Notes: generated by a model not told the origin, from the sequence alone. A stretch of DNA of 64,000 nt from Marsupella aquatica (GCA_973895155.1 OZ316891.1:14229037-14293036), one strand, 5' to 3'. Positions 13,831 to 53,300 are shown, numbered from the stretch's first letter. Numbers and translations: made by a program.

Positions 13831-13904
13831 AAAGAACCCAAGAGATATGAAGATTAAAATACTCAATAGTCATTCCAGACACCTATCATAATTGTAGAGT
13901 CATA

Positions 13905-31735: not shown

Positions 31736-34700
31736 TGTCCAGTCCATAACGATATCTCCAGGAAGAGTCACCAATTCCAAAATAGTTTGCATGAAACCCA
31801 CAGGCAAGCGTGAATTTCTTGCAAATTGGAGCTCAAGAGTCGGGTCATGTCGCGGCAACGAAAACCCAATGATGTTAGTGACGGAAGGGTCTTCTGCATT
31901 CGATAGTGGCCGGAACTTGGGGTCTTTCGGGACCCTTCCCTTTGACAAAATGCGGCAAAATATATTAAGAGTAAGTGTGAATATCTGCAACACAGTTTCC
32001 CAATGAAGGCAGTATAAGAAAACAGACACATATATATTAGCACTTGGCGCTAGTCAACCCTTCATCCTTACAAAAGATAAGTGAAGTGTAGATAAAGCGA
32101 ATGCTGATAGTAGCGTCGGGCGCTAGTATGTGCAAGAGGAATTGTTACCTGAGTATCATATCGGGGTCTATACATTGGTGCAGTCATGACCACATGGTGG
32201 GTTGAAATACACTGGAAACTCTTAGAATCCTGGTAAGCGGCAATCACTTCAGATACCTGATCATAGTCTCCTCTGTGTAAAATTGCAAGTAGGCCATCGT
32301 CAGCCAGGAACGGCTCCATGGCTCGGAAGAAAGAGCTGGGAATAGTGTAATCCTGAAGGTTCCACTTGGGAACTTTCCGATCAAGAAGTGTTGGTTTTAA
32401 TCCAGTGGGAATGTAGGTGAAACCAGCATCTACACCAAAGCCCCTCTCTTTTCCGCCACGCATTACTCCCTTCTCTCTGTCTCCTGACTTTACCAATTCC
32501 TTTCCCCAGGCCTCAACTTTAGTAACCCACATGGGCTTCATCCCCTTGTTAAATACTGAATCGTAAAATTTGTTTAAATTGGACTCCACAAAACAGTGTC
32601 TAGAACACCTTTGTTTAAAATTCCCGACATCTCTCTGGAGTCCACAGGAAATAACGTCTCGAGTAGATGATGTTGCTCTGTCCTCATCGGCGCCTCTCTT
32701 TTTCTTTTTCTTAGTGCTAGTTGTGTCAACAGGGACAATGGATTTGCCAGCACCATCCGGGGTCCCTTGATCCGGGGTTTCTTGAGCTCCAGTGTTTGCC
32801 TCCGATGCCTGAGGAGTTGCATCATTCTTCCCTTCGGCAGCCGGGACCTTCGTGTCGGACTTTTGACCTCTTGTTAGGCACAGAAACTTGCATGAGTCCA
32901 ACCTTTCAGACTAGCGCCAGGCACTATTAATCAAAGGAATTTCCAAATGAAACTTCTTCATAAGCAGTGCCAACAAGTAACCAAAAAGCGCATAGACTAC
33001 TCACTTTTCTTGAAGGACCTTGTGGAGTCACTTGGTGCAGCTGACTCATTCTTCGCCTTTGCTCTTGGCTTCCGGCTTCGGTCAACGTGCATGACAAGAG
33101 ACTCGCAATTCTTCTATAACTCAGATGCAAATTTGTCAACATCAGACTGGAGACCTTGCTTCATTGTAGACACATAGTTGGCAGGGATCTGGGACTTCTG
33201 CAACTTCATGAAGGCATCCTTCTTAGCTTCGTCGAACGGAAAATCCCATTTGTCCGTGTCGAGGTACCACGGACAGTGAAGTCTCTCCCACTCCGACAAT
33301 GAACGTGGTGGAAACTTTCCCTCCGCTGGGTACATCAAATACAGGTCGGCAAGAGCGTCTCCATCTTTGATAGACACTCATTTCTGAAATGCAGCAGGGT
33401 ATGCCCACAGAGTGTCAGGAGATCTAAGCTCCATCCACATGTAAAACCGGTATAGATATCGTTTGGCTCTTTTCCGGTTCCGCTCTGTGTAATCTTCCTT
33501 GTCCACATATTTGGAAGGCCACAAGTTGTTGAAGAATTTTGCCTTGACAAGATCCCCAAAGTTTCTGAATTCATCGAGAATGATCTTAAGCATGGCCTCC
33601 ATTGACTCACACCCAGACTTTGTGAGACGGTCAACCGGCATCCGGTCAGAAATCTGTTTGAAGGAAGTGTGAAGCATTCTAGTTGCAATTCCCTCCACAA
33701 AATTCCAAGTATGCCATGTATGGCACCACTGCTTCACAGGCTCGTTGTTGACACTTGCAGGATGGAAAAACTGTTTCCGAATCTCGGGAGTGCAGTGGGC
33801 TACTAGAAGGGTGCACCTCAATTTTGGATCCAGGTATGAAACAATAGTAAACAACCTGGCTCGATCCATTGTGCATACAACTATGTCTGGCTTCTTCTCC
33901 CATTTTTTCTTCTCGGTTACGGGATACATCTCAGCACAGATTCCCAAATAATCTCCAAAATCCGGATGAAGTAAAGGGGTGATCTTTGTCACTTTGATCG
34001 ACCAATCTTTGGTCGCCTCTTTCATCATTGCCTCATGCCTCTTTGTGGTCTCCTCTTCTGACCAAGGAGCCCCTTGAGCTTTGGCTAAAGCCATATCAGA
34101 CTTAAATTGATTTGAGTAAGACTTGATTTTGTCCACACATAGAATGTAGATGAGAGCGTCCTGTGGCATTTTATGTGTAAACCAAGACCCCTTTCTTGTC
34201 TTGTTTCAGATCGCCTCAAACTTTGCCATGTTTGCGGTGTCTATGAGTGGCTTATAGTGATCAAGATCACGCGACAGAAGTTGGGAAATTTTGTTCGCGT
34301 CAAGAATCCAGGAAGGCTCGACGACTGCTTGTCCAAGCCTGGATGCAATGAAAAGGAATTAGTGCCGGGCGCTAGCAAAAATTGGGGAATGAACACTTTC
34401 GCAAAGCATGTTTGGTCCAAAATGAATGACAGGGGTAACAACAGTTAACAAAAATAAATTACTGGTTCACGGTGTGCATTGCTGCCTCGAGCTCAACTAG
34501 CAAACCTCTGTCACCATTGAAAATGACGCAAATCACACGAGGATGATACTTCAAGTTGTCCAGATTCTCCCTTGTGACGATTGACCAGGAGTACAATCGA
34601 TGATTTCCGTCAAACACACAAAACATTTTATCTTTTAGAATATGGAAAGCTGGGTCCGCATCACACTCTTCCTCAAACTTGTCATTCTCTGCGACCCAGA

Positions 34701-35120
34701 TTGGATCCCAAGAGTCCTGGATCTTGGTGGTGCATATCTGAGGAACCCCATTGGCATTCGCAGGCTGAATGTAGAAAGCCATCCCAATGCGCGAGTTGTA
34801 CCCGGTGACCCGGAATGATTCTTTCAACTTCTTGATCGATGCACTTTCTTTCTATAAGGTTCAAACAACCTCCATGGGTAGCAATCTACACAGAGGAATT
34901 TGAGGTGGCTCCTTATTGAATCCTCAAAAATCCTTCCCGAACGACAATGCATGCTTTGATATTACCTCATCCATCGATAAGCCTATGTCACTGACTTCAC
35001 CCATGGAGACCTACTTCGGGTCCATTCTCCCTCTTCTCGACCTCGGGAAGGGCTGTGCAGATTCTGCTTTGGAAGTTGACAGGGACGCAGTCGATCGAGT
35101 GACGCAACGGGTGTATACTG
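31736..35120 (-). pseudogene. E1 ParB/Sulfiredoxin-like plus beta-class DNA amino-methyltransferase-like gene, multi-exon, with stops and a frameshift; continues at 12922-12653
   Basis: ParB-like segment R..DQEVER(I)KESFRVTGY..FCVFDGNHRLYSW (34459-34880); motif IV-like GVDAGFTYIPTG..VPKWN..EPFLADDGLLAI (32068-32901); RLPVGFMQTILELVTLPGDIVMDW leading into motif I. Motif IV precedes motif I, the beta order. Confidence 0.75.
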
Positions 35121-35563
35121 AACCAGCAAATAAAGACTAAGAGGACTTAGAATGACCACCATCAACCTCCCCCATTCTCGTATCACCCAGCCAAAAATTG
35201 CCGTGGAGAGCGACTCGACCACCCCGCACTATCGTACGCGCCGTGCAGTTCTTGTGATGATCACGTCTCAAAATGTACGGGACCAATAAAGGACGCACAT
35301 ACGCACTTGACAAACTTGTACAGTCCGAGGTATGAGCGCTTAGATGGACTAAATTATCTCCAACGAGCAATCTCAACCTCGTATTAAGACACCGATACAA
35401 TGGGCCCAGCCATTCGATATTCACGGCCCCAAGTACAGATGGCATTCTCCGATTGGACTTTCATCCCAGACAAAAGCAAAAAGGGTTCCGTGAACCTCAA
35501 TCTACAATAATATTACCGTTGTAAAGTGACCGTTGGAACCACAACAGTGTCGGTAGATCAAGA

Positions 35564-36901
35564 TAGCGCCAGGCGCTATTATACAACATACCTTCAAATG
35601 TATCGGAAAAAACGTCTTCATGTAGCTACAGGCATTGTTATCGATAATACTGTCTCTAAATTTTCAAATTTTGTGTTGGTGTCAACAAGCCAACTTTAGT
35701 AGCGCTCGGCGCTAGTATTCAAATAAATCATGAAATCAGAGTGCAATGACAACAAACATGAATGCATGAACCCATTCATTCAGAGAATATTCCAATAAAT
35801 TTTAATAGCGCCTGGAGCTATTAAAATGCACATCAATTGAACAAAATTTGTTCAAAGAAAAGTAAAACATAACTCCTAACGGGTCTATCTTGTGATTCCT
35901 TTAATTAATAGCGCCCAACGCTATAAAAAACAATTTAAAGATAAGACATGTCCCGACCGAGTTAAAGACACTTTGTTTCTCATAATAGCACCGAACGCTA
36001 CTAAAAACATTGGTAGCCAGCGAGTGTTTCCAACAATTTCAAAGAAATCGATCAGGTTCACATTCAGAATTACAATGCAAACACGAGAGTAGAATCGGAA
36101 ATTAAACCTTGGTATTCTGAATTCAAAAGCATTGACACCGATGTAAAAACGAACGGCTGTGCCATTCATATACAAAATGTTACACTACACTAGAAATCCG
36201 ACATACGATGAAGGAACGGTATGTGTTTCCTATCGGAAAAACACATGTGGAAACAGATCCTCCTTTGCCTTCCCTCGTGGAGGTGCCATTGAAAGTGAGG
36301 ACAAGGGACGAGGACAATAACAAGAAGCGAGGACAAGAATGCGAATGAGGACAAGAGCGCGAGTGAGGACAAGAATGAGAAACGAGGACAAGAATGAGAA
36401 TGAGAACGCGCCCGAAAGCAAAGTAGAACCACTGGGCCCGAAAGCGAGAACGAGAACCACGTGCCCGAAAGATGAGCCACAACTTTGCCTTAGTGAAGAA
36501 TGGCTCTACAATGAGGACATCGAAGGAGAACAACAAGATATAAGGAGAATTTGCACTTTGTCCCTGGTACCCACTTCAAAGAGGACCCTCGGACAGCACT
36601 TTCGGAGACGCATCCTTTCTGACATATTTGGACCCGGGCGGATCGGATTCGAGAAGATCCAATGGAGATCTTCAAGCGTGCCAACTTAATGACTCGTACT
36701 GTATCACATTATCGTACTTTTCTTTCCATTGAATGTTTTCAAGTCCATTGAAATAGGTAGCGCCAGGCGCTATTATTAATTTCCCTTGTACTCCTCACCC
36801 AAGAATGTTTGCACCCAAAGGTAGCGCCAGGCACTATTATTATTGGCCTACGTAGTCCTCACCCAAGAGTGTTTTACACCTTGAGGTAGCGCCAGGCGCT
36901 A
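35564..36901. promoter_or_regulatory. Cluster of eight 15-bp palindromes TAGCGCCNGGCGCTA between the divergent E1 genes (putative protein-binding sites)
   Basis: Copies at 35564, 35700, 35806, 35909, 35986, 36758, 36822 and 36887. A regulatory role is inference. Confidence 0.7.
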
Positions 36902-37040
36902 ATAACTAGGAACCCAAATCTTGCCGTTGGTAAGACGACAAAACATCATTGATGGAGTGCGTCCAAATCTATAACGACTCTATAGTGAGAATACAACGTT
37001 TACTTCTCATACTCGAATCTCATGATAAACATATTTCATT

Positions 37041-37975
37041 TTGTGTGGGGCAAAGGCATATCCCTCTTTTGAAGCCATGGCTCAAAATATTGTTGTCACG
37101 AGGAAGGACACTCGGGATGTAATCACAATCCCTGTCCTCGAATCATGTGAATCAAAGCGTGTTTTAGAGGAATATTTGGGAGTGAGATTTGATGTCGCCA
37201 AGGAGTCTATTTTAGCGATCTCGTTGGTGTTGGTTTGCTTGGGGGAGACTCTAGTTTTCAACGATGTTGTTCATGGTCAAAGATATTGGACTCTGGAGGC
37301 TCCAAGAGAATATGAGATTTTTGTTTTGAGAGATTTTGGGGCCTCCTCTACTCATCCTCCCACAGCGGCTAAACTCGATGTCATTGAACTCTCAGAAAGT
37401 TTTGGAGATGATAAGCAAGCGACAACTACTCTCAGAGAGAAGATTCCAGTTTACCCATCCGAGATTAAAAAGGAGTCTAATGCGGATCGAGAAAAGATCG
37501 TGCCTTTGACTATGTACCGGCAGAGTGCAATAGATACAATCTTGAAATCCAAAGGTCATAGTGAATTGTCTTGGTTTATAAGGGGGAGTGATTTTGTTCA
37601 TCACGTAGTGCCTAGTCTTCCCACATCTTACAATGGGAATGTGGTTTTTGAGTTACCCCCGGTAGACTGTGTGAACGCAAAAGGTGAACGTTTGAAAGAT
37701 ATGGATCGCGGTAAGGATTGTTATTATTGGACTCGGATTGTGAAAACATCTTCAAATGTTCTTCCGAAGAAAATGTGGGATTTCGGGAAAGTCCAGTGTA
37801 CGGGATCGTTGCAATGTCGAAATAATGCTTGTCCGTGGTGGAAAGACAACAAGTTTTGAAATAATGAGATGTGGGCAAGAACCCCAAAACTTTTGGGCCC
37901 ATTCCGAGTTGGGGAATTGATCTCCGAAGGTGGAGTTGTTTGTCACCATTGCTCCGAACCTCCGATGTGCGCCCT
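37041..37975 (+). pseudogene. Truncated N-terminus of a putative MULE-related transposase with a GCM/WRKY-like Zn module
   Basis: LPTSYNGNVVFELPP..MDRGKDCYYWTRIVKTSS..QCTGSLQCRNNACPW; after TGA 37857 the same frame gives NEMW..FRVGE..VCHHCSEPPMC and then loses coherence. The family call is from recalled similarity; no DDE core is in the window. Confidence 0.6.
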
Positions 37976-38950
37976 GGGCCCTTACTCTGTGTATATTAAT
38001 GGAACCGGCCTGTGAACGCCCCTCCCCTCCAAACCCCTTTAGTAGTATTTTTTGCCCTTTTAAAAAGCTCTTATTAGTATTAATAAATTACTTTTGGGTC
38101 ATTAAGAAAGCCCTTTAGGCTATTATAATCTTCATCAAAATGACATTAAATATGCTCTTCAGGTGTTATAAAAAATTATGTCAAAGAGATTCTAAGTCAA
38201 ACAGATTGGAATAAACATTTCACATTATCAAAAGCAAAAACAGGAACAACATATTCTTTATGTACACACTTCCTCGCAAGAAGGTAGGAGTCAAGGCATT
38301 TAAGAGTCAAACAAACTCATACAAGTATCCAAATTTAAGTTGTAAACATTTTACGCTGTCATCTATGAAAACCGTAAGTCCACATTGCACTTAAGTTTGT
38401 CCCATAGTTTGTTGAGCATATTCATCATCGTTTACAGGAAAGTTATCCTTTGAGTCTAAAGCATTGGAAAACTTATTACATTTAAACTAATTCTTTGATC
38501 ACTAGAAGTGATAAATATCCACCGAGGTACATAAGTGACTCTGGATTGAGACTCTCTATCACTTGTGGCATCATAGAATCCCCACCTGACGCAACATGCA
38601 TTGAACAATGGTGTCAACTTGACCTCCTCCTTCTTTGGGGGCCCTACAAGGCCATATATACCCCTACACCGTTTGATATAGAAACCCCAATTTAAGAAAA
38701 ACCGAACTTTGGAAATTCCGAAAATCACTAAATATTATTATTTTAATAAAAAGGGGGCGACATGACGCATGGCTGCGTGTGAAACCCTGAAAATGACTGC
38801 AACGTCACATTTTAACCAATCCAACTTGACGGGACCAAGAGACATGCTCACGCGAATAATAATAATAGAGAAATAAATCTTTGAGATCCTTTATATATGA
38901 TAACCAGTATATAAGGAGTTTACAAATGGTTTCTAGAACGACAATACAAA

Positions 38951-39680
38951 TTAATCTGATCTCATGCCGACTATTATTTTGGAAGCATCCAAAATTGGGC
39001 GTCTGTTAAATTGCTCTACTAGATATCTATCTCCATGCCTCTGAATCACAGGGTCTTCCCATAGAGTATGATTATAATCATAATCTCTAAAAATAGATTT
39101 AACTGACCAATCTGGATAATCTCTTCCATTGGCAATGACAAGCGGCTCACAAGAGTTTGCTAGCTTGCTAAGATACGGAATCAGCAAGTTAATCAGGAAA
39201 CTGTCGTCGACCGACCCAAAATATTTGGGCGGAAATAATGATCCAACAACAGGATCTAAACAAGCATGAAATGCATCGGATTCGATAAGCATTATGTTTT
39301 GCTGCAGATACGCCTTCGTATAAATTCCAACCTTCTCAAAACACTTCAAAAATATCCGCTTATTTGATGTCACCCCATCGCATAAGTAACAATGAGACTG
39401 ATCCCAAATATACTTAAATGAGGCCATTTCCATCGCAGTAAAAATAGATGCTAAAATCTGATCTAAAAGGTTCTTCCCAAGAGAGGACCAGATCCCTACA
39501 TCGAAATTCTCAAAACAGAATCTCAAGAATTCATGAAGATGAGGCCTTGGAAAAATGTATATATTCCCAATCCGAATTCCAGTTGAGACCGCCATCAGTC
39601 GGGAATGCGGTGCAGTGTAACAGAGTAGATGCTCCACGTCTAAAACTATGAGCCCGTTTTCTTTGCTGCAATGAATCTCC
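38951..39680 (-). CDS. FCP1/SCP-like (NIF) HAD phosphatase-like domain 3, degenerate
   Basis: GLIVLDVEHLL..IFPRPHLHEFLRFCFENFDVGIWSS..IWDQSHC..FLKCF..NIMLIES..DDSFL..LIPYL. Confidence 0.8.
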
Positions 39681-39765
39681 TATAGAGAAACACAAGAAGA
39701 TGCATGAGCCCGTATGGATGTAGTCACGCGAATGGTCGCGTCACATATTACAGAGAAAACATCCT

Positions 39766-40473
39766 CTACACTCTGGCCATTGATAAGTGACGTCTGTTGA
39801 AGTGCTTGATAAGAACTTGATCCGCATGTCTCTGCACGTACAGATGCTCCCATATATCCTCGTTCAGATCCCAATCTCGATGTAGATTTCTAATCAACCA
39901 GATGGGATAATCGAACTTGTTAGCGAATGCAAGACAAAGCCCTGAATTTGATAGCTTTCGTAAATATGGAATGAGGTCATCCCTCAAAAAGACATCATCC
40001 AACGATCCTTGAAATGACTTAGCGAACAATAATCCGCATACAGCTGTCTGGCATGTATGGGAAGGACAGGCATCAATCTGGATTATATTCTCTGGTCGAT
40101 AATCTTGAAACATATCACGTAGTCTCTCGATAGATTTGAAGACAACAGTCTTATAATTTTTCTTCACATAACCAAGATTCCAACAATGATCCCGTGTGAA
40201 CACATATATCAGCTGCGACAGGTCGGTGCTCGACAACACTTCTGAAAGTATCTGATAAACCAGTTTATCATCGAGAATAGACCAGACCATCACATCAAAA
40301 TGATCATAATAGAATTTTATAAGATCATGAAGATGCGGCCTCGGAATGACACATAGAGATCCGATACGAATTCCAGGTGCCGACTTGAGCTGAGGAGTAT
40401 ATTTTGAAACAGAGCACAAGAAGTTTTCCAGTCCTAAAACTAGAAGTTGACGCGACCTGCTCCACTTAGACAC
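39766..40473 (-). CDS. FCP1/SCP-like (NIF) HAD phosphatase-like domain 2, degenerate
   Basis: LLVLGLENFL..IPRPHLHDLIKF..FDVMVWS..VFKSI..ENIIQIDACP..DDVFLRDDLIPYL; no motif I aspartate. Confidence 0.8.
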   Translation of the reverse strand: MSKWSRSRQLLVLGLENFLCSVSKYTPQLKSAPGIRIGSLCVIPRPHLHDLIKFYYDHFDVMVWSILDDKLVYQILSEVLSSTDLSQLIYVFTRDHCWNLGYVKKNYKTVVFKSIERLRDMFQDYRPENIIQIDACPSHTCQTAVCGLLFAKSFQGSLDDVFLRDDLIPYLRKLSNSGLCLAFANKFDYPIWLIRNLHRDWDLNEDIWEHLYVQRHADQVLIKHFNRRHLSMARV

Positions 40474-40598
40474 CTGTAAATGAACAATTCGATTCTCATA
40501 TTATGCAATTGCAAACAACCACGCGACCGGGCGTGTCACTCCCAAAAGTTCAATTTCAATCAATTTATAAATAATAATTGATAATAAACAATAAACGT

Positions 40599-41506
40599 TT
40601 ACTTATTGGACTTATCCCGGGCTTCTATAGCATGGTCTTTTTTGGCAGATAAGTATTTCATAAATTTGTCAAACTTTTCTAAATGGTCTTTATTCCCCTG
40701 ATTACGAATGATCACGTTTCTCCTCCAAAGATTCGTCTTATCAATATAATCTTTCTCAAGATTTTCTTGAGAGAACGTTGGAATCCCATATCCACTAAGG
40801 AGCTCGCGGAATGTCAACTTGTCAATTGACATGTCGCATAGATATGGATATAGTTTCTTTCTAAAAAATAGGTCATCATCGAGCCCAAAATATGCATCGG
40901 GATACAGCGATGAATAAAAGTCATTAAGGCTCGTCTTATATGCAGCGTCATCGATAAGAATGACATTCTCGATGTTGTAATCTTTAATATCGGCGGCAAT
41001 GTCCGAGAGACATTTGACAAATATAGGGATGTCATTATTATTCTTCCCAATAAATCGAGTTGATTCTTGTCCCCATATAAATTTAATATGTTTCAAAACT
41101 TTGGGTCGAAGTATCAGCCTTACACAAGATAGAATATTCCGTTTGAACATGCACGACCAGATCGCAATGTCGTATAGATCTGCCACCTTCTCAAGAAATT
41201 CCATTAAATCAGGCCTTGGATAGATAACCTTGTGCATCTGTCTCACACCCCTTGACCGAATGGGCATCCCAGGGCTGATCTTATCTGACCAGATAAGTAC
41301 CCGATTCAGATCGAAAATTACAAGTCTCTTCTGAACCGGTGACTTCTTTGCCGATGGAATAGGCGCCATCTGTACCTGTGATTTTTGTGCCATAGGGTTT
41401 GGAGAACGTACTAGAACGGTCTGTTTGTTTCCCGCCTCCGGACGATCACCGGACTTCCGGACTGGTGCCTTCGATACTCGATCAGGGGGTTTCGGGATAG
41501 GCTTCT
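40599..41506 (-). CDS. FCP1/SCP-like (NIF) HAD phosphatase domain 1
   Basis: KRLVIFDLNRVL..IYPRPDLMEFLEKV..YDIAIWSC..FIWGQE..FVKCL..NVILIDDAAYKTSLN. Confidence 0.85.
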
Positions 41507-41633
41507 GTAAAACATTAAGAAATGAAAATAAGTTTATAACGCGAACGGTCGTGTGACTACAAAGAGAGACACTGAAATGAAGTGTATTACCTGTACAAGA
41601 CGGTCGTTCAGTGCTGGAATTCCGCCGGAAATG

Positions 41634-42380
41634 TCAATCATAGCAGATCCCGGTAACTAGGTTACTTGCGGACGTCGGCTTGCGGAAGTCCATGTCAAAT
41701 AACAACAAGACTATCTCCCTACGGAATTTCTTAATTTGATCTACGGCAAAATTAATTCCGTTTCCTTGACACAAGCACTTGGCGTATCTCAAGATAAACA
41801 CACCACAACTGTGGCCGTCACTCTGGTGAGGAATATCATTCCGATATATCCATTCCCAACCTGAGAGATCCAAGTTGACACCAGTTCTCCAGCCAATTTC
41901 GTCGGCGTAGTACTTCCCAACAATATCTAGCACCCCAGGATTTTGTCGATTATGAACTAGAGAATCTAGGTACTCCAGCCGTTTCTCCTTCGGATACAAG
42001 ACTACCAATGACCAATGTTCTTTCACAGCATTGTGTACTGGAAAGACCAGTTTCTCGTATTCACTGATTTTTAGCGGAAACTCCTTTGTCCAAGCTGCTC
42101 TCTCCTTGTCAAAAATGGTAGGATCCATGGAGAGAAGCTCAAAATGGTGTGTTTGGAAGAATTTGACAAGGTCTGACTTTCCAACTCTATCGAGAATCAG
42201 TTCGAGAAAACTCAAATAAGCGTTAATTATATCATCGGTGAGCAACTCGCGCGGTCTCAGACACATCATATGTTTCCTCTTGATCGAGTGTTGTAAGAAC
42301 TTGGTCAATAGCTCTTCCATATCCTTAGAAGGATCAAGGCATTGATCTATTCGACTAGCCAAATTTTCAAAAAACTGCAA
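41634..42380 (-). CDS. Ulp1/SENP-family (peptidase C48) SUMO-protease domain
   Basis: CLRPRELLTDDIINAYL; FPVHNAVKEHWSLVVL; LEYLDSL; IPHQSDGHSCGVFIL. The His-Asp-Cys triad and oxyanion Gln are present. Confidence 0.93.
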   Translation of the reverse strand: MQFFENLASRIDQCLDPSKDMEELLTKFLQHSIKRKHMMCLRPRELLTDDIINAYLSFLELILDRVGKSDLVKFFQTHHFELLSMDPTIFDKERAAWTKEFPLKISEYEKLVFPVHNAVKEHWSLVVLYPKEKRLEYLDSLVHNRQNPGVLDIVGKYYADEIGWRTGVNLDLSGWEWIYRNDIPHQSDGHSCGVFILRYAKCLCQGNGINFAVDQIKKFRREIVLLLFDMDFRKPTSASNLVTGICYD

Positions 42381-42508
42381 AAAATAGAGATTTCAGTAAG
42401 CCTTCAAATAACGTATTGAGGTTGTAGCCTAAGGGTTGTAGCCTCAGAAAATAGAAACAATAACAGATCAATAATAAAATAATGACGTCTATAATAGAAA
42501 CTTTAAGC

Positions 42509-44262
42509 TTATAGCTTGCGAATGACCTTTGGATTGGGTGGATCCGGCCATTTTGCAGCTGATCTCTTGGGTGCCTCAATCGCAACAACATCCTTCAGCC
42601 CTCCTCGAGACCGCAGTGATCGCTCCACCGGACCAGTTTGCGAAGGTTGGAGCGATGAGACGGGAAGACCTTCAAATGGTTGTGGCATTTGATTCAAATA
42701 TTCCACAATCTGGGAATCCGATTCCAAAATATCCGGTGCCACAATTTCTGCGCGAGTCACCTCTGCAATATATCGGGGTCGAGACCATGAACCCGGTCGC
42801 GTCAAGTCAGCTGTTAGTCTCTTAACGACTTGAGCCGAGTCTGGTGCCAAAAACGTTCCCAGGTCTTGCACTCGATTCACGGAAAAGCGGACATTATTGA
42901 TGATTGTCTCCATTCTGGATGCAGTGGCAGTCTTCTCCTCGGTAATCAAAAGACCCTTCCAATATTGCAAAGCAAGGACTGCCTGGACTCGGAGCTACTC
43001 CGGTGAATATTTATTCCAATCATCCAATGAGACCGTACTTAAGGGTGGATCGTTAAATTCAAACTCCGGGCGAAGAAAATAGTCTAATATTTTCTTCTTA
43101 ACTGCAACTGAGGGTGAAGAAGGCTTCTTCAAATTCAGCCTTATTTTCGGTAGACGTTGTGCCTCAGGAATAAGCGAAAGATCCTTGGCCCTCTCGGCCT
43201 CCTTCCTCGCTGCCTCCAGTCTTGCGGCTTCTTCTCTCTCCAGTCTTGCGGAATCCACCTTTTCCGCCTCCAACTTCTCCGCCTCCACCCTCTCCGGTCT
43301 TGCGGTCTCGTCCGCCATCCTCTCGGCCAGCAGCCTCTCAGCCGCCTCACTCTCCGCCTTGGCCCTATTTTCCTCTGTCACTAAAAGGACTCTCGCAGCC
43401 TCCGCTTTCTCCGCCTGGGCTTTCTCAGCCTGGGCTTTCTCCGCCTGGGCTTTCTGAGCCTGGGCTTTATGAGCCTGGGCTTTCTGAGCCTGGGCTTTCT
43501 GAGCCTAGGCTTTCTCGGCATCCGCTTTCTCCGCCTGGGCTTTCTCCGCCTGGGCTTTCTCCGCCTGGGCTTTTTGAGCCTGGGCTTTCTCAGCCTGGGC
43601 TTTCTCAGCCTCTGCTTTCTCCGCCTCGGCTTTCTCAGCCTCGACTTTCTCCTTCTTCTTCGCGACAGTTGCTTTTCTAGCTGCTGCCTTTTCTTCTTAA
43701 CCTCCTTCTTTTGAAGCTGCTCTTGTCGGGCCGCCTCTTGTCGGGATGCCTCCTCCTGCCGGGCCACCTCCTTCTTTTGAAGCTCCTCTTGCCGGGCTGC
43801 CTCCTGCCGGGCCGCTTCCTTCTTTTGAAGCTTCTCTTGCCGGGCCGCCTCCTGCCGGGCCTCCGCCAGCCTGGCCTCCTCCAGCCTGGCCTCCTCGTGC
43901 CGGGCCGCATCGTGCCGGGCCTCCTCCTACCGGGCCTCCTCCTGCCGGGCCGCCTCCTCTTGGTCCACCTCATGTCGAGGCTCCTGTGTGGCCTCTTCAT
44001 CAGAGTACTCAGCGTCCTCGGAACCCTCCATCTCCTCGTCCTCTTCATCAGCGTCCTCAGCGTCCTTCATCTCCTCTTCGTCACTCTCTTCATCTCCTCT
44101 ATTGTCGGAATCTCCGACGTCGTTCTGCGTATCGGTCATCCACTCTGGATCTTGGTCATTGACATCCCCATCCGCGTCACCTTCCGCGTCACCTTCCCCC
44201 TCACCATCCGCATCACCATTGCTCCCTGCATCCTCAACATTGAAGCCACAGTCGACTTGATC
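42509..44262 (-). pseudogene. Acidic and A/E/K/Q/R-rich coiled-coil linker exon of the E2 giant gene (15-bp repeats EAARQ and AEKAQ)
   Basis: D/E tract at 43990-44250, tandem EAARQ and AEKAQ units, in-frame TAG stops and a frameshift near 43690. Confidence 0.7.
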
Positions 44263-44378
44263 TGAATAAAATCAGATCATTTGATAAGAATGACTCACGC
44301 GTGAAAAGAAATGTTATGAATGTCCACGCGCATGTTCGCGTGACGCAATAAAAAGTAAGAGGTTTCAAAAGTAACTTA

Positions 44379-47300
44379 CCTTGGATTGGCCCACTAGGGT
44401 ACTCCGTTGGTCGAATGTATAATCGATCGGAATCTTCAGAGAGTGCATACTCTTGCAATAATTGATTACAAATATTATCAGGGATATGTTGTTCGTGGAG
44501 GACATCCAAAACATCAGCCCTGAGAGCAGTTACGGATGGACGGTACTTCATTAATTTATCTATACATTTTTCTATACTAGCCCGTACTGGGTCAATCAAT
44601 GACAGCGTTGTATCAATTATCGCCGTGGTGTGTTGCAAGAAACAAGACAACTCCCTATGCGTTGCCACAGGGCAGTAATATTTTACATTGGATCCAGCAT
44701 CCTGTAAAAAAAAGCCAAAATTAGTTCACAATATTAATTGAGAATATAATAATCTAAATAATCTTACAATCGAAACCCCAAAATATAAATAAAAAAACTT
44801 ACCATTAAGCACTAGATCAAGTTCGTTCCCTCACCGAAGCATATAGCCCATTCCCCACATTGGACGAATTGACTAATAATACTTTCAAAGAATGGAAGTA
44901 TCTTTTCTGGGGAAGGTGTCGTGAACTCGCCGCTCTCTTCAAAATTGGCTATCTTCTCAATCTGATATTTGGAGACCAATTGGAACTCGAGGGCTTGTGG
45001 ATCGCCCATTGTGCTGAAGGCCAAGCTGTGAAAAGCGTAGGTTACAATAAGCTTCTTCTCCTTCGGCCTCTTCTGAATATAATGGCTATCGACAGCAACG
45101 TAGTGTGTGTACTTCCCTAATTCCCGTTTGATTAAGTAAGACTCAACGGGAGAGGCTACAATAATAACCACATGGTGTGGTTTTGCCCCTATCTCGCTAG
45201 TAGCACGAAATAACCCCTCATAGAATGAGCAATTTGGCGGACGCAAATCTCCCATTGATGAGGGATCAAAATAAATCAAGCTCGCAAGGTTCTTGTCTTC
45301 ACGTATGATACAGTCTGCAAACCCAGCATTTTGTATATCCTGCAGGGATCGCAATTTCAGCCTCTCACCGACCGGCCGCACTAGTTGGTTTCCTTGACTA
45401 TCAACTGATTTCTGTATTTCTTCCACCAACCTGTAGAATATAGGGTCAATCTCCTTCAACAAATTATCATTACTAATATTTACATTTAAGCACTTCTTCA
45501 GATAACCACTCAACGCATCTCTCAACTGCTTCAGCACCATCTTGTCGAGCTTAAAGCGATCAATCATTCCTTTGACCCGCAATTTCCGTGCTGAATCTGT
45601 CAGACTTTTCAGCTCCATCCGGGTGGATGTTTCCCCGTTGAGTTTACTCAATAATAAAATCTCAAACTCAACTTTCGTCTTCTTCTTTATACAGAATTGC
45701 TCCAAACTCATGCTGGTCGTTGACAACACTGGAGCCTCAGAGGACTTCCTCGCCTTACCAGATTTTACTTTGATGCTTCGGTTTTTGAGTATAGACAGTC
45801 TTTCGCTCAACATATATTCCGCTGCCTTTCGAAGAACCGAGTCTGAGCACCCTTGACAAGAACGGAACGTCTTCTTCAGAAGATGATAAGCACAAGGATT
45901 ATCCGCAATTTTGACGGCATCCCTCTGTAAAATTCCGTTGTAAATTACAAGCTCTCCTATCCTTGATAGTTCGTAGACCTCCATCCACTTCTTGAATGTT
46001 TCGTCCTCCATTGTAAAGAGAAACGGAGCCAATTCTCCAAATTTCATCATTTCGTTCTTCCCCATTTGAGCCCATGGGCAGACAAAACTCGTAGCTCTCA
46101 TAAATACCTGAAAAACAATGGAAACATGACAATTCTAAGCTTGACGCGACCGTTTGCGTGACAAAAGTTTATACGATAATGTGATCGAAGAGGGTTATTT
46201 ATATACCTTCCAATTTGGATGACGATAATGTGATCCAGGCCGCCCAAATGAGTTCCAGATATTACGACACTGTCGTACAATGGTCAAAAATTGTCCTTCT
46301 TCCATTGATGTTTGATGACAGTGGTTCAGAGCTTTCGATAATCCCATCAAATGAACATTATTGTCGTTGTTGAGCGTTGCCCAAAACATTACAGCTTCTA
46401 CAGTACCGCAAGCATCTCGTACAACTTGGCTAACTTTGTCGTCCTCTCTCAGCAATTTGTACGCCATTATTGTGTGCTGGCCTCCGAGTATCCAGAAATG
46501 ACTGGTCAAATGTCCTCCTCCTTTGGCGATGAATCGTAGGGCGTCCCATTGTAGTCGGGATCTCTGTCGGCCTCCGACTGAACCCACTTCACAGGGACTA
46601 AAAAGCAGCATCGCTTCTCGAACTTTATAGTCGAATGAGAGAGGAGTGAATTCTTTAGCCTATGTGTAATCCTGATTCCACTCTCGGCACTTGATGTGGT
46701 CCGGTGCAAGATGACAACGTGATGTCTCAACAAAAAATGACTTGCTATTAAATATATTCACAGCACTATATTCTTTGAGGAAAGAATCGAACAGAGCCCC
46801 GACATTCGCTGAGGTAATTACTTTTGGAAGATTCTTCGCAGAGTATACTTCAACCTTGCTCACTGGCGGGGCCTTTCCCAAGCAAAATCCCTGGTTGAAA
46901 GGAACTCTCTGGAACTCAAGTACGTCAATAATGTATTGACAAATCAAATCTCCCGTTGATGCCTCTGGATCGGAAGGATATCCCACACTAGTAACCTTTT
47001 CCAAGGCGTGCCTTGCACCTAGAAGATCATCGATTCTGGGCTGATTGAAGGTTACATATTGCGTTCGATCCAAACAAATGCTTATTTTGTCTTCCTGCTG
47101 GTCGTCGCTAACTAGCAGAACCAATCCCTTTGTACACTCTTTAACTTTCATGTTCTTCTCAAAGAAACACTCGAGAATTTTTGATCTCTCCAAAACTGTA
47201 GCTTTATCATTTCTTGCCACCACAAGACGGACAGCCCCATTGCGAACGACTATTCCAAAATCGGATATCTCAGTCGATTCAAAGAGATGGATACTCTTTG

Positions 47301-47442
47301 TCTCCATTGTTCTCTCTCTGATTGACTTTCCTTGATATGCAAGTATGGATGTCTCCGCGGGAGTCATTTTTGTCTTGGTTTTCTTTCGAGAAGCAGCTTT
47401 AGACGAGTCTCTTTTCCGCTTTGAGGTTCCGGTAGGATCCAT
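44379..47442 (-). pseudogene. E2 ParB-like plus degenerate DNA methyltransferase-like region, multi-exon
   Basis: CREWNQDY..RLKNSLL..CFLVPVK..HFWILGGQHTIMA (ParB/DGQHR-like); ASLIYFDP (motif IV-like); EKILPFFESIISQFVQCGEWAICFGEGT (resembles EKP..L...I.....GD.VLDPF.GSG). Candidate GT-AG introns ~46200-46110 and ~44802-44703. Confidence 0.6.
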
Positions 47443-47517
47443 TCTGAAATAGACAAATATTGAAAGTTAAACGTTTATTATAAAATACTAACACGCGCAT
47501 GGTCACGTTGTGCCGAA

Positions 47518-48048
47518 TTACATTTTAGGAATGTTTATCCTGACCCAATCTTCTCGCTCATCTTCATCTAACCAAAACCAAAGGTTCCTAAACGTGTCAA
47601 GTTCAGATCCTTCAAATCCACCCAGAATGTCTAGCGGCGGGAGAGTTCTGATGGATTCTGTAAATCTGAATGCTACACTCCATGAAGTCAAATGCCTTTG
47701 AAGCGATTCATATCCTGGTCTATCAGTGAAGTCGTAAGCTACCAAGGTGACCGTCGCCCAAGTACTACTATAAGTAACTATGTGGCACCACTTCTTACTG
47801 ACTATTCGAATGGCGATCAAGTCCATGACCCGATTTTTAATCGCAGTATCCGACAAATTCCCAAGACAGTGGAAAAACTCTTTGACTAATGGCCAAATAT
47901 ATTTCTCGACAATATCGTCCGAAAGACCGGGTATCAGGTCTTCAGCTTGACTCCATATCATGTTTCGGTTCAGAACCTTTGCACGTGCAATGCGCTCCAT
48001 CATCATTTGACGATGAGATTTTCGATTCATGTCAAAGGACTGCAGCAT
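47518..48048 (-). CDS. F-box-like protein or exon, copy 1
   Basis: LIPGLSDDIVEKYIWPLV..LIAIRIVSKKWCHIVT..W. Confidence 0.65.
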   Translation of the reverse strand: MLQSFDMNRKSHRQMMMERIARAKVLNRNMIWSQAEDLIPGLSDDIVEKYIWPLVKEFFHCLGNLSDTAIKNRVMDLIAIRIVSKKWCHIVTYSSTWATVTLVAYDFTDRPGYESLQRHLTSWSVAFRFTESIRTLPPLDILGGFEGSELDTFRNLWFWLDEDEREDWVRINIPKM

Positions 48049-48125
48049 AATATGGAAAAGATTAAGAACAAGAACCTATCCATTAAGAACTGGGACCACC
48101 GAGATTCTGAGAAAATCTACCAAAC

Positions 48126-48649
48126 CTTTTGATTAGGACATCTCGTTCTTCCTCATCTAAATTGTTATATTTGTTCGTAAACAATGCGATTTTGTCAGAA
48201 GTAGTAGTCCCAAGAACAGATATTTCTGGAAGCATAGAAATATCCTGTCGAATAACTCAATAGACTGAGTCAAACTCCAACTCGTCAGTTTCGGGTATGT
48301 TGTAAAGAGCATCATTTGCGACATCGACAATCCGGTTTGCTTGTTTGAGGATAGCCCATAACCTTGTATTTGTAACTAAAAATTTCCACTTCTTGCTACA
48401 AGCTCCAAACTGAATAAGGTCTCGGACCCTATCGATAACCAAATCGTTATCGAGGTGTCGATATCCACGCAATCTTTCAATTGAAATAAAGTGTTTGTAG
48501 AGTATTGGCCAAATGTTTGAAATGACCAAAACATCTGGTATTCCTCCAATGAGACTAGAGGAGGTTTCATCCAGCGTATCCCATATTGTTTTCTGTTTCT
48601 TTTCATGAGATGAAAGGAAATCTCGAGCCTCATTCAAAAGTTGGCTCAT
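48126..48649 (-). pseudogene. F-box-like paralogue, copy 2 (internal TGA at 48257)
   Basis: LIGGIPDVLVISNIWPIL..FGACSKKWKFLVT..W. Read-through gives ISMLPEISVLG..LDEEERD, which matches the copy 1 tail IRTLPPLDILG..LDEDERED. Confidence 0.62.
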
Positions 48650-48714
48650 CCTGCTTTTATCATATCACAAAACATTGTTAGAAGACATACGACGCGCTTG
48701 GTCACATAAGTTAA

Positions 48715-49278
48715 CTAGAATTCCTTAAAAGTGTAGATGTCACCCTCAAGGTATCCAACTTCGTGGCATCTGACTGTAAATTTCCATTTTTCAAGAGGGT
48801 GAAGAGCATCGTAAGTCTTCGCGAAGAGTTCCCTAAGATCTCTGGACATTGACCCCATGAATTTAATTCTTGGGTATTTCTGGAAGAAACTTTGAATTGT
48901 CGATGAGAGAGACTCATTTCCGATCGGTTTAGTAGGATTTCCAGGGAAAGCCAAATCTAATAAACTCAACTTGATTACACCCAGAAGATAGGTATTCCCA
49001 ACAAGGTGGCGCCATCTGCAACACACCGAAGATAGTCCTACAAACTCATCCAATTCCTTTATTGAGAAATTTCCTGCATTAGCCGAGGAATTAAAAGTCT
49101 CCTTGATCCGAGGCCATATCAATTCCACGACAATGAAATCTGGAAGTCCAGGTAGTAGTGTTTCAACAAATACAAAATATCCCGCCAGCAGACCATCTTG
49201 GCTTCTGTCCAAAACGTCAAATATTGGGCATAGATATCTGAAGCTCTCCAGACCAGGTTCACCCATGACTCTTTTCAA
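48715..49278 (-). CDS. F-box-like paralogue, copy 3
   Basis: LLPGLPDFIVVELIWPRI..LSSVCCRWRHLVG. Confidence 0.65.
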   Translation of the reverse strand: MKRVMGEPGLESFRYLCPIFDVLDRSQDGLLAGYFVFVETLLPGLPDFIVVELIWPRIKETFNSSANAGNFSIKELDEFVGLSSVCCRWRHLVGNTYLLGVIKLSLLDLAFPGNPTKPIGNESLSSTIQSFFQKYPRIKFMGSMSRDLRELFAKTYDALHPLEKWKFTVRCHEVGYLEGDIYTFKEF

Positions 49279-49299
49279 CCAAATGATATATCCCAGAGA

Positions 49300-49805
49300 T
49301 TATTTTCACGCGACTGGTCGCGTCTACAAATCAGAATGCATAAACAATTCTTTGAGAGACTGATTTTTTCGGGTCACAACGTGAAATCATAAATGTTGCT
49401 TCGTCCTCTAACAGAACCAGTCAATGAGAGAGCAACCTCAGACGTGACTGGTCGCGTCAACTGAACCTAAACAACTATATCCACTGAACCTTCTGTGGAG
49501 ATTTGGATATGATACGCGCTCAGTAAATCTATCCAGTTTTCTTCTCACACGCGACTGGTCGCGTCAACTGGTCCTAAAAAGAACCTTACCTCCTCTAACA
49601 GAACCAGTCAATGAGAGAGCAACCTCAAACGCGACTGGTCGCGTCAACTGAACCTAAACAACTATATCCATTGAACCTTCTGTGGAGATTTGGATATGGT
49701 ACGCGCTCAGTAAATCTATCCAGTTTCCTTCTCACACGCGACTGGTCACGTCAACTGGTCCTAAAAGGAACCTCACAGTATTTTCACGCGACTGGTCGCA
49801 TCAAC
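49300..49805. repeat. ~187-bp tandem duplication region carrying six ACGCGACTGGTCGCGT palindromes
   Basis: cctctaacagaacc at 49405 and 49592; palindromes at 49308, 49442, 49549, 49629, 49736 and 49786. Confidence 0.88.
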
Positions 49806-52349
49806 AGCTCAAACAACTTTTGGACAATTGGATAATACAGTGATACAACTGTGATTACTGACCCGTACGGACAAGGAAATCCGAGTAAGCATGATTTCAT
49901 TCATTTGTATTCATTCATTTGTATTCATTCATGAACTTTACAATAATTCAGATGTTTGAGCTCTGTCATTGTGAAACTATTATATATTAGAAGTTTAGAG
50001 AATGATCCAGCTAAGATGATTCAATTTAGCAGTCTACTGGTTGTATTCGTCAATTAAAGGATTCAGTGTAATGAGATTCACATAACATGAGAGTTTATAT
50101 GATTAAATTCACAGCGTGCAAGTTTGTAATGACTTACTTAAGACGATTCAGGTTGTATTTTAATTAGTGAGTTTGTATGATTCACACATATTTGAGTTTA
50201 CAAACAAACCGCATTATGAAAACTGTGCTTAACAATCAAGAGAAATTTTAGCAAACCACAATCAACACCAGGTGAAAATGTAGAAATTACACCTGAATTC
50301 TGAAAAATTGATGTAATCGTCTGAGAGATTGACGTCCAAGCACTTGAACACCTTGCTGCGGCATTCCAGAAAGTAAATATAAGATTGAAGATATTAATAT
50401 GCTAAGCAACAACAACACAGCTTCTATACTTCTATACATAGATCTTCGCTGCCACCAATTGAATAACATGTGCTTAATGCTAAGGAGCTCATTATGTCGA
50501 GTTAAAAAGACTCTTTGAGAAGTCTTTGAGTGGATAGGCAAATTGAGCATGAATAAAAGCGCACTAAACCTGAAGATTCAAAGAGGTGAAACAAACCTGA
50601 ATGCTGAATGGAAGGAGCTAAAACAAGCTGCCAAAAAGTAGTTTGAGCTGCTGAAACACGTTGATCGAGCTGATATGAGCTTAAAATTGGCTGACACGAG
50701 CTGATACAAGCACTCCTAAAAAGCTAGCTGCAACGAACTAGCAAACTAGAAGTGAATACGAGCTGTAAATGCGAGCTGCAATGCACCAACGAGCTCCTGG
50801 TCGAAACGATGGACAACTACTAAGAGCTGCAATGCGCCGACAAGCACCTGACCACAACGAACGAGCTGCAACGACAAAAATGAAATCCAGGGCAGGAGCG
50901 AGAGCGACGAGAGCAGGCGCGCAAAAGTCTAGGGAGCAAGAAACAACAACAATGAACAATGAACTCGAGACCGTGGGCGCCGACACTAAGGAAGGACTAA
51001 TTAGGGTATTGTTTTAGCATAACCCTAATAACAGCCTAGCGACAGGAAGGTTCCAGATGATCTCCGTACACTCCACCATCGACTGAACAAACTATGCAAT
51101 CGTGAAAAAAAGATTACCGGATTCCTTTTGATTTTTCGTACTAAAGGAGATTTCTATTTGATGGCCAATTTGAAATTTAAACCGGTAATTATGCAACTGC
51201 GAAAGATTGTTAGTGGGGACCCCCGGATCCGGATCCGGATCCGTATCTTCACTATATCTGCCAATTCAAATCCAAAATGTGAACGAACGACAACTTTCTC
51301 ACGATCGTTCCATCACGTAGTGGAGGCAAACTTCAAAATCATTCCATTTTGGTAGTGGAGACCGTCGGATCCGGATCCGTACTCCACTCTCTATCTTGCC
51401 AATTCAAACCCTTACTCTAAACAACGTAAAATGATTCTCACGGTCAGGGAGAACCGATATTCAAAATCAATCCTGTACAATGATTCTCACGACTGGAGAC
51501 TCAACCAATTTTCAAAATCAAAATCGAGTCCAGATGAACACATCCTCCATGGAGTCAATAGACTGATCTCATTGCTCACGGATCATTCTTCATTTTCAGT
51601 TTCTCCTGACTAGGATACTAGCTGGGCTCTCAGCGGAGGCTGATCCAAGGCACATTTGAGGTGGAGCAGATTGGATCATTCGACTATTCCAGTCGGAGGC
51701 GGAGCTCATTCAAGCAACGTTGGCGCAGTTCTTGTTGTATCACCTTCAATCTTGGGGAGAGCACATTCGATCAAGCGGGAGAGTTGCGACGAAGCGAGAC
51801 GACAAACATTTAGAACCTCCATAGTCTGCCTCATTCATCGAAGCATTCTAGCGGACCAACAAAGAGCGGCTATTCTGAAATCACAGTTTGGTCGAGGATT
51901 TTGATCTTGATACGATCAACAAGTTGTCATTCTCTGGTGGTGGGATTTGATCACGATACTCAAGGAAATTGGAGTTCGAAGGAGGAGGCTTAGTTGGCTG
52001 GGACGAGGAGGGTACGCTGGAAGGAAGAGGCTTGGCTGGGAGGAGGGTTTCCGCCAACATCGGAGGGTTGCCGCCAACATTGCTGAGACCACACGCAACT
52101 GAATAACTTGTAAGTATCAATCAGCATTAATTCCACAATAAATGAGGAGAGTAGTTGCCTTAAATCACGCATTCAATGCATGAATTGAGTCAATGAAGTT
52201 ATGATCCAATTTCTCACTCCGATTTTGATCAATCCGTGTTTCAAGTCCAATACAGAAGCAATGTATCAGAAGTACTAGTAGAGGATCCGAATGAATTCTC
52301 TAGTCTAAAATTGTATGGCGTACGCGTATAGTTGTTCGTACATTTTGCT

Positions 52350-53300
52350 ATTATTTATTGTAGTCGACGGCCTAGCAAAACGAAACGTAATCGAGGTCCA
52401 TTTTTCAGATCTTCCTGATCTCAACTTGTTAGTAGGATGACCTATTTTTTGGTTACACATGCAGTTCGTCACGCGCACAGTCGCGTGAACCAATTTATCT
52501 CGTGTCTTTTGATATTGTTTATTGTAGTCGACAGCCTAGCAAATTGGCCAGACATCTATTTTAAAACCAATGTCTTCGTTTCATCATGCGCACGGTTGCG
52601 TTAATGTTGTAGAGGTCAGCGAAAGTTCTGCACTCTTAGACGTAATCGCCCTTTATTTCAGAGATCTTCCTGATCTCAACTTGTTAGTAGGATGACCTGT
52701 TTTTTGGTTACACATGTAGTTCGTCACGCGCACAGTTGCATGAACCAATTTATCTCGTGTCTTTTGATAATGTTTATTGTAGTCGAAAGCCCAGAGAATT
52801 GGCCAGAAATCTATTTTGAAACCGAGTTCTGATTCACGCGACCGGTCACGTTAATATTTTAGAGGTCAGCGAAAGCTCTGCACTCTTAGACGTAATCGCC
52901 CTTTATTTCTCAGATCTTTCTGATCTCAACTTGTTAGTAGGATGACCTGTTTTTTGGGTTACACATGTAGTTCATCACGCGCACAGTCGCGTGAACCAAT
53001 TTATCTTGATATTGTTTATTGTAGTCGACTGCCCAACGAATTGGCCAGAAATATATTTTAAAACCGAGGTCTTCGTTTCATCACGCGCCCGGTCGCGTTA
53101 ATGTTTTAGAGGTCAGCAAAAGCTTTGCACTCTTAGACGTAATCGCCCTTTATTTCTCAGATCTGCCTGATCTCAACTTGTTAGTAGGATGACCTGTTTT
53201 TGGTTACACATGTAGTTCATCACGCGCACAGTCGCGTGAACCAATTTATCTCAGGTCTTTTTGATATTGTTTATTGTAGTCGACAGCCTAGCGAATTGTC
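52350..53300. repeat. About four ~250-bp tandem units carrying seven ACGCG-N6-CGCGT-type palindromes
   Basis: gatctcaacttgttagtaggatgacct at ~52417, 52672, 52922 and 53168; palindromes at 52471, 52586, 52726, 52836, 52977, 53083 and 53222. Confidence 0.9.

Follow-up and report, generated by a model that had tools for sequence, protein, structure and literature searches.

Layout of the gene and its exon borders

The stretch of Marsupella aquatica DNA analysed here (GCA_973895155.1 OZ316891.1:14229037-14293036; 64,000 nucleotides in all, referred to below as the window) is plant repeat DNA in which a Ty3-like piece and two CACTA elements flank a locus occupied by one big split gene. The left CACTA element (Transposase_21) ends at about 31735 and the second starts at about 54682; between them, the gene runs on the minus strand from an ATG at 47442 to a TAA at 38951 as eight coding pieces separated by seven gaps. 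Joined by splicing, its first six exons would encode a single protein of 2,098 amino acids (aa), in which a weakly recognisable ParB-like segment, a helical region, a methyltransferase fold, an acidic and coiled-coil stretch, a Ulp1 protease and a first NIF domain (NIF1) would follow in that order. More than half of the words of the stretch were present in four public DNA runs, and the contigs aligned to the 9-kb gene region numbered 1,662 (run X1) and 2,853 (run X3), with identities from below 90 to above 99% and a read depth that is not convertible to copy number. None of the seven runs listed was an RNA run, a blank that carries no information on expression. Judged from these matches, the locus is very probably one decayed copy of a multi-copy repeat, a mobile element, and this repeat is likely a large bryophyte DNA transposon with the big gene as its accessory gene. 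The predicted parts of the gene, with the basis for each, are as follows.

46207..47442, minus strand: exon 1, an N-terminal region of no assigned identity and a ParB-like segment (GGQHT); open reading frames (ORFs)
46108..46206, minus strand: intron 1, 99 nt, phase 0, one palindrome (46142); NWK|VFMRA in frame
44803..46107, minus strand: exon 2, 435 codons, a helical region, then a beta-class methyltransferase fold; 23 homologs and a fold model
44702..44802, minus strand: intron 2, 101 nt, phase 0, donor ATG|GTAAGT; CLM|DAGSN in frame
44380..44701, minus strand: exon 3; a copy with 66 differences (X1 record 7) aligns over 44370-44701 and nowhere else nearby
44262..44379, minus strand: intron 3, phase 1, 118 nt, with a perfect donor and a palindrome at 44324; PIQ|DQVDC in frame
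42527..44261, minus strand: exon 4, an acidic stretch, five-residue coiled-coil-like repeats (15-bp units) and a linker; ORFs and repeats
42375..42526, minus strand: likely intron 4, 152 nt, phase 0, donor AAG|GTCATT; frame and site quality
41591..42374, minus strand: exon 5, Ulp1/C48 protease; Pfam E 3.4e-19
41505..41590, minus strand: intron 5, phase 0, 86 nt, with a palindrome at 41537; LVQ|KPIPK in frame in other copies
40599..41504, minus strand: NIF1 exon of 301 codons with motif DLNRV and a final TAA; Pfam NIF E 8.8e-12
39766..40473, minus strand: NIF2 exon of 235 codons, entered at phase-0 acceptor 40474 and lacking a start codon, with motif GLENF and a final TAG; Pfam NIF E 5.7e-11
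38951..39679, minus strand: NIF3 exon of 242 codons, entered at phase-0 acceptor 39680, with motif DVEHL and a final TAA; Pfam NIF E 5.1e-15

The seven gaps measure 86-152 nt, are 55-79% A+T, carry YAG at every 3' end and together make up 9% of the gene length. An earlier note on this DNA, written by a model from the sequence alone, had recognised short AT-rich gaps between minus-strand ORFs but listed six, missing that at 42526-42375. With an X placed at each break, exons 1-6 (through NIF1) form a single frame of 2,098 codons whose end is the NIF1 stop. Donors at the five junctions of introns 1-5 carry 7-9 of the nine letters of the donor consensus.

Introns 1-3 and 5 can be accepted with high confidence on the evidence of frame and borders. 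At intron 1 (junction 46206/46108), NWK|VFMRA reads through unaltered in phase 0, the column is crossed by all four Calypogeia models that reach the end of exon 1, and a diverged copy loses similarity across 46115-46205; in six cases, stop-to-stop ORFs from the contigs start with Gln or Lys (codons ending in AG) right before this column. At the intron 2 donor, VS or VR follows in all eight representative homologs extending to the end of exon 2, and in two cluster members in addition, as a phase-0 GT donor would be translated, before the sequences diverge. The preservation of both borders in distant relatives supports the first introns, and the copy with 66 differences, aligned just to the borders of exon 3, supports introns 2 and 3. 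As the earlier note had proposed, CLM|DAGSN (44802/44702, phase 0) and PIQ|DQVDC (44379/44262, phase 1) splice in frame as they stand, and LVQ|KPIPK (41590/41505) does so in other copies, which have five more bases at 41645. Intron 4 is quite probably real as well, with a donor of 7/9 consensus letters, a T-rich YAG acceptor and matching phases; a GC donor at 42519 was ruled out (4/9 letters, wrong phase).

This copy is damaged in several exons. Exon 1 bears two compensating deletions near 46662 and 46508, the shifted frame between them matching homolog P0009; exon 2 has a premature TAG at 44814-44812, where homologs carry Q, E or K at 44814; and exon 4 has premature TAG codons at 43929, 43507 and 42997 and a frameshift at 43688. 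Other copies carry two more bases at 46662, one more at 46508, one more at 43688 and five more at 41645, and have a sense codon at 42997. Four indels and one stop of this copy are thus absent in other copies. The comparison covered 12 out of 23 rows for indels and 40 out of 766 for substitutions, a set in which the stops at 44814, 43929 and 43507 do not appear. A reading of every premature stop as a CAG-to-TAG change was dropped, because the stop at 46662 comes from a deletion. Among 32 near-fixed differences chosen by eye (14 of 24 rows over 39600-40720 and 18 of the 40 listed rows of the wider comparison), 24 are C-to-T in this copy, and 21 of those 24 fall at CG or CHG, against 38% expected.

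The 23 homologs of exon 2 include relatives of 27-53% identity, and the liverwort Calypogeia fissa is the source of at least four (P0004, P0005, P0009 and P0020, with 10 of the 23 looked up); P0022 has the same form. No related locus, and with it no intact full copy, was found in metagenome contigs, viral contigs or prokaryote genomes, and these scans lend a viral origin no support.

Domains of the predicted protein

The Ulp1 domain (Peptidase_C48) announced by the earlier note was confirmed by Pfam (E 3.4e-19; 70 bits against a cut-off of 20.7), and its active-site residues are present: His (EHWSL), Asp (YLDSL), and the oxyanion Gln and the Cys (HQSDGHSCG). The exon also matches SENP2 (E 7.8e-18) with the His-Asp-Cys triad aligned. 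By its residues, Ulp1 is the sole domain keeping a complete catalytic set, and SUMO cleavage is predicted for it.

Exon 2 had no Pfam match in 22 family members, nor any PHROG or solved-sequence match of note, and its assignment comes from structure. A fold model built from 22 sequences reached pLDDT 82 (35 for a single-sequence model), with the first 240 residues helical and residues 244-435 matching beta-class N4C/N6A methyltransferases (Foldseek E 2.3e-4; M1.HpyAVI, CcrM). Against MboIIA, the model gave Z 12.9 and a root-mean-square deviation of 3.4 over 163 aligned residues, and the top 19 rows were all amino-methyltransferases; a viral structure library agrees with the fold, while an Atlas score of 0.76 serves as a lead only. 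Both the fold and the motif order of the class were found, and the match extends to the last residue of exon 2, which supports splicing onward to exon 3; that exon likely completes the fold. The catalytic position, inferred from model strand 275-280, reads FDPSS: (D/N/S)PP(Y/F) occurs in none of the nine aligned rows reaching it, and the Asp is kept in eight of the nine. As PPY is missing throughout, the modelled methyltransferase is likely inactive, and the methyltransferase domains of METTL14 and DIRS1 are likewise described as inactive (PMC4738411). The methyltransferase-like label of the earlier note thus stands by fold and not by catalytic motif.

The ParB-like label of exon 1 is weak. 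Members of the ParB/Srx superfamily carry a nucleotide motif of the form GxxR, and the corresponding motif in exon 1 reads GGQHT. Matches to the segment are weak (Pfam ParBc_2 E 0.076, with no profile above cut-off; Atlas 0.91-0.94, ParB_N standing on 15-19% of members in two clusters). Neither this piece nor exon 2 showed pairwise similarity to the look-alike ORFs of the left neighbouring element.

Each of the three domains that the earlier note called FCP1-like phosphatases matches the NIF profile (45.4, 42.8 and 55.9 bits for NIF1, NIF2 and NIF3; Pfam cut-off 21.8). Phosphatases of the NIF/FCP1-like type share the catalytic motif DxDx(T/V), which is found in none of the three (DLNRV, GLENF and DVEHL), and NIF2 is without the catalytic Asp. 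The sole solved relative found for the profile was UBLCP1 (E 5.9e-9), not FCP1 or SCP; no match to a BRCT or ubiquitin-like domain was found beside the NIF domains, and a NIF profile search matched one protein among 3,128 candidates. With UBLCP1 as the solved relative, the C-terminal domain (CTD) of Pol II is a hypothetical target. The Arabidopsis CTD phosphatase CPL2 is described as repressing rather than activating (PMC12663933). Repression, on the example of CPL2, would be the likelier effect of a CTD phosphatase that is active, and decoy NIF tails therefore fit better than a multi-enzyme picture.

The palindrome and CpG retention

A 20-bp CG-rich palindrome, TSACGCGM-N4-TCGCGT(SA), has 35 strand matches against 0.26 expected from shuffles, and 19 of its 20 distinct sites in the window lie within 39724..53239. 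It occurs in five of the seven gaps of the gene (39724, 40521, 41537, 44324 and 46142) and in no exon; further sites lie upstream of the ATG (47491) and at 49306, five lie in or beside a 187-bp tandem repeat and seven in a 255-bp tandem repeat. In X1, X3 and X5 copies, a 10-base insertion at 44297 completes a second palindrome in intron 3, and other copies have the consensus palindrome base at 40534. An RNA hairpin is the less likely reading of the motif, as variants in one arm lack compensating changes in the other. A different palindrome, TAGCGCCNGGCGCTA, belongs to the element on the left, with 11 of 13 sites in 32038-36901.

The ratio of observed to expected CpG per 2 kb is 0.74-1.06 over 34-56 kb and 0.12-0.65 elsewhere in the window. 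At codon boundaries, the gene retains 89 CpG against 99.4 expected (ratio 0.90), compared with 27 against 113.9 in the CACTA ORFs (0.24), 3 against 18.9 in the Ty3 ORFs (0.16) and a ratio of 0.56 in the left element. Similarly, NCG codons make up 78 of 390 in the gene versus 18 of 557 (p 3e-17, in a test that treats codons as independent, which they are not entirely, and that includes two slightly overlapping CACTA ORFs). CpG retention at synonymous positions spans all eight coding pieces. The lineage that multiplied stayed CpG-rich and its dead copy is now methylation-mutated, a pattern that fits protection of active copies or recent arrival.

Three related short ORFs stand upstream of the big gene:

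47518..49299, minus strand: three related short ORFs, 26-27% mutual identity

They show a split F-box-like signature, with palindrome-like sites between them; F-box similarity is weak in two of the three (Pfam E 0.005 and 0.0096, under cut-off), and they are likely cargo of the same element. At 53504-54049, a minus-strand ORF of 182 codons with a Cys/His cluster and no Pfam match adjoins the 255-bp palindrome array. The right part of the element is interrupted by the CACTA insertion.

Other features of the window concern its neighbours. The second decayed element, at 31736-37980, has a minus-strand split gene along with the palindrome and CpG ratio given above. One of its ORFs (34462-34851; DGNHR) is ParB/DGQHR-like at E 0.067-0.089; this ORF matches galectin-8 better, at E 6e-4, which is taken as chance and weakens the label. 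Its last ORF (32071-32910) is possibly methyltransferase-like by eye, and the split gene faces away from a Cys-rich ORF (37029-37980) that has no Pfam match and that we take to resemble the start of a GCM-type transposase. Two more TAGCGCCNGGCGCTA-like palindromes lie at 12052-12130 next to fragments of acidic ORFs and may mark a remnant of a related element. The cargo of the two CACTA elements is of chromatin type, with PHD fingers resembling NSD (E 2.5e-7) and a SET domain (E 5e-6), at 22096-22764 and 60237-60893. A tandem array at 13900-18000 repeats a 576-bp unit about six times, and every unit contains a palindrome of 52-59 nt.

NIF junctions, possible function and known systems

The three NIF exons probably do not join one another as the rest of the gene does. 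The stops of NIF1 (TAA 40601-40599) and NIF2 (TAG 39768-39766), and the positions next to them, showed no indel or substitution at a share of 40% or more in any of the four runs (39600-40720), and X1 record 8, spanning 40460-40642 at depth 811, has two differences and no gap; being common to the majority copies, these stops are not decay of this copy. P0028, 47% identical to NIF2, ends nine residues past the last FN, in the same column as the NIF2 stop, and has Ser where a phase-0 GT donor would require Val, while a diverged subfamily retains the NIF2 TAG though the gap sequence beyond it differs (a loose end at 39744). GT 40602 is in phase 2 and the strong AG 40474 in phase 0, so that this splice meets a stop after 11 codons, and the frame could be regained just at weak AGs further downstream; GT 39771 and AG 39680 do agree in frame, yet this donor has 4/9 consensus letters (40602, 5/9). 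The single chain of roughly 2,500 aa with three phosphatases, which the earlier note regarded as broken by stops and indels, keeps one frame of 2,098 aa through NIF1, with four indels and the stop at 42997 absent from other copies, but its NIF-NIF joins probably fail: shared stops stand at both, the outcome that the earlier note itself had named as a refutation.

Each of the NIF exons begins behind an acceptor in phase 0, as does the acceptor paired with donor 41590 (that of NIF3 is CAG in majority copies), and NIF2 and NIF3 have no in-frame ATG ahead of the domain, yet are open in relatives. Shared stops, missing starts and phase-0 acceptors make alternative last exons likelier than one chain. 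On this evidence NIF2 and NIF3 probably do not belong to one chain with NIF1, and the three may be alternative last exons, a tentative proposal that falls slightly short of an even chance. Donor 41590 would then splice to NIF1, NIF2 or NIF3, giving isoforms of about 2,100, 2,030 and 2,040 aa. A phase-0 donor-like CAG|GTACAG (6/9) at 41375, inside the linker of the NIF1 exon, could also splice to NIF2 or NIF3.

What such a protein would do is suggested by its parts. The ParB-like and helical N-terminal part would bind the 20-bp palindrome as a dimer, the methyltransferase fold, lacking its catalytic motif, would act as a DNA-binding or clamp module or as a scaffold, and the acidic and coiled-coil stretch would be a spacer. 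At the element so bound, Ulp1 would remove SUMO from proteins of chromatin or of silencing, with the NIF domain as a weak enzyme or decoy on exchangeable tails. The element-specific palindrome in introns and tandem repeats, together with the lack of CpG depletion, gives circumstantial support to DNA-targeted anti-silencing, a role that the earlier note had proposed; its multi-enzyme component was overstated, Ulp1 alone being catalytically complete. We put at about even the chance that the gene, a decayed transposon copy with a six-exon product of 2,098 aa, encodes a self-targeted anti-silencing factor; that its action is palindrome-guided, by analogy, is a conjecture held with a little less assurance.

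Two other gene structures were weighed. The model of the earlier note, a single chain that would reach about 2,570 aa and include the three NIF domains, spliced from 40602 to 40457 (phase 2) and from 39771 to 39680 (phase 0), would leave open frames at both joins, across gaps that are intron-sized and share their palindrome with introns 1, 3 and 5, and would account for the missing start codons of NIF2 and NIF3. It is nevertheless improbable: AG 40457 lies behind three nearer AGs, with 4 T in 18 bases versus 8-12 elsewhere, and the low donor scores, the Ser and the stop of P0028 and the NIF2 TAG kept by the diverged subfamily all stand against it. Slightly less probable still are separate genes: a ParB-methyltransferase-coiled-coil protein would close at TAA 42511-42509 and a Ulp1-NIF1 protein would open at ATG 42320, with NIF2 and NIF3 as separately started genes or untranslated duplicates. 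An in-frame stop does stand five codons past the intron 4 donor, which has an unusual C at +3, and an ATG lies shortly ahead of the C48 domain; moreover, algal ParB-methyltransferase proteins are described without Ulp1 (PMC12477816, as far as its account extends), and searches with exon 2 and the NIF1 exon found no fused relative. However, the 152-nt gap has the phase-matched 7/9 donor and T-rich YAG acceptor and offers scant space for a terminator and a promoter, and NIF2 and NIF3, with no ATG before the domain, are still open in relatives.

A further possibility keeps the gene structure and changes the role: the ParB-like part would gather palindromes to pair ends or activate element promoters, Ulp1 and NIF would regulate that transposition complex or be hitch-hiking cargo, and the high CpG would reflect recent horizontal arrival. 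The CACTA elements in the window bear repeated subterminal motifs of their own, transposase-derived regulators are described as activating transcription via cognate motifs (10.64898/2026.08.24.746577), and this copy is already methylation-mutated. We regard this reading as rather unlikely, as the palindromes sit inside introns, distant from any end, like the motifs of VANC (compared below), as relatives of 27-53% identity, including at least four from a liverwort assembly, point to long residence in methylating plant genomes, and as CpG is kept at synonymous positions across the eight coding pieces.

Several points also weigh against a self-targeted anti-silencing factor as such. CpG was compared with three neighbours in one window, and its retention would also follow from recent horizontal arrival or from recent capture of unmethylated host sequence; this copy bears CG/CHG decay, so that any protection is not permanent. 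The ParB-like segment lacks a profile match above cut-off, a good number of the palindrome sites belong to tandem copies and so do not count independently, and no transposase, terminal repeats or target-site duplication of this element were found within the 64-kb window. All splices are predictions from genomic DNA, and that of intron 4, a likely one, draws on frame and site quality. The NIF2 stop column draws on a single distant homolog, P0028, and an in-frame path via weak sites exists at both NIF-NIF junctions. Searches with exon 2 and the NIF1 exon gave no longer fused relatives, a blank that counts weakly.

The anti-silencing factor proposed here has its closest parallels among algal accessory genes. 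Sola1-1_Ec32 of Ectocarpus has a 1,104-aa accessory gene that combines a ParB-like domain with an N4C/N6A methyltransferase, and similar proteins in transposons of green and of red algae are described as a possible class of self-modifying accessory proteins (PMC12477816). In red-algal Plavaka elements (PAG2/PAG3), the PAG3 ParB-like domain lies beside inverted-repeat arrays (10.1101/2025.02.11.637652). As in these proteins, a ParB-like segment would precede an amino-methyltransferase fold in a large repeat with inverted-repeat arrays nearby, and a self-binding role is proposed; the likeness is one of domain order and fold, with the ParB part weak, and was drawn from descriptions rather than sequences. 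In contrast, the Marsupella gene belongs to a land plant, has lost the catalytic motif, is predicted to be fused to coiled-coil, Ulp1 and NIF parts and carries palindromes in its own introns. The liverwort Marchantia has an active host 4mC methyltransferase, DN4MT1, with TSPPY (10.1101/2021.02.12.428880); both are prokaryote-type beta-class amino-methyltransferases in a liverwort, but the Marsupella domain has FDPSS and lies in a repeat. Set against UBLCP1, FCP1 and SCP, the three NIF domains score above cut-off but lack both the catalytic motif and a BRCT or ubiquitin-like companion. Zisupton/KDZ elements carry a SUMO-protease domain, and share with this locus a large size and F-box-like plus Ulp1 cargo; no KDZ, CxC, SWIM or SAP domain was matched among the window ORFs scanned. 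An F-box isoform is noted for Zisupton/KDZ transposons (PMC12062965).

VANC offers the functional comparison. Its binding sites are short motifs that lie in introns, in spacers and in tandem repeats (PMC5735166, PMC10398659), and KAONASHI (KIU) denotes the Ulp1-bearing VANCs of VANDAL MULEs, where the role of Ulp1 is given as unknown (PMC13317346). The Marsupella gene shares with VANC/KIU a family-specific motif in introns, spacers and tandem repeats, a repetitive peptide region and a Ulp1 domain; its motif is a 20-bp palindrome, whereas that of VANC is a 9-bp word, and demethylation, proven for VANC in the work cited, is hypothetical here, the CpG signal being indirect. ParB-like, methyltransferase-fold and NIF parts are absent from the accessible descriptions of VANC (PMC5735166, PMC13317346), and no Pfam match to a VANC-type domain or VANDAL transposase was found among the window ORFs scanned. 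By analogy, the locus would work like the algal accessory genes and like VANC, with membership in either not established. No published description of ParB, methyltransferase, Ulp1 and NIF together in a bryophyte was found in a search of the main texts of openly readable papers. The locus supplies a candidate site in its 20-bp palindrome, a specificity control in the neighbour's different palindrome and a compositional sign of escape from CG methylation; it lies in a plant group with transformable models and bears on what transposon-borne Ulp1 domains do. It is a doubtful but consequential possibility that a land-plant transposon lineage built a parS/ParB-like anti-silencing system independently of VANC, with a phage-type ParB-methyltransferase at palindromes, a SUMO protease, three swapped tails and lasting freedom from CG methylation, while its neighbours use other palindromes. 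If so, this would be a second sequence-specific anti-silencing system in land plants, convergent with VANC on Ulp1.

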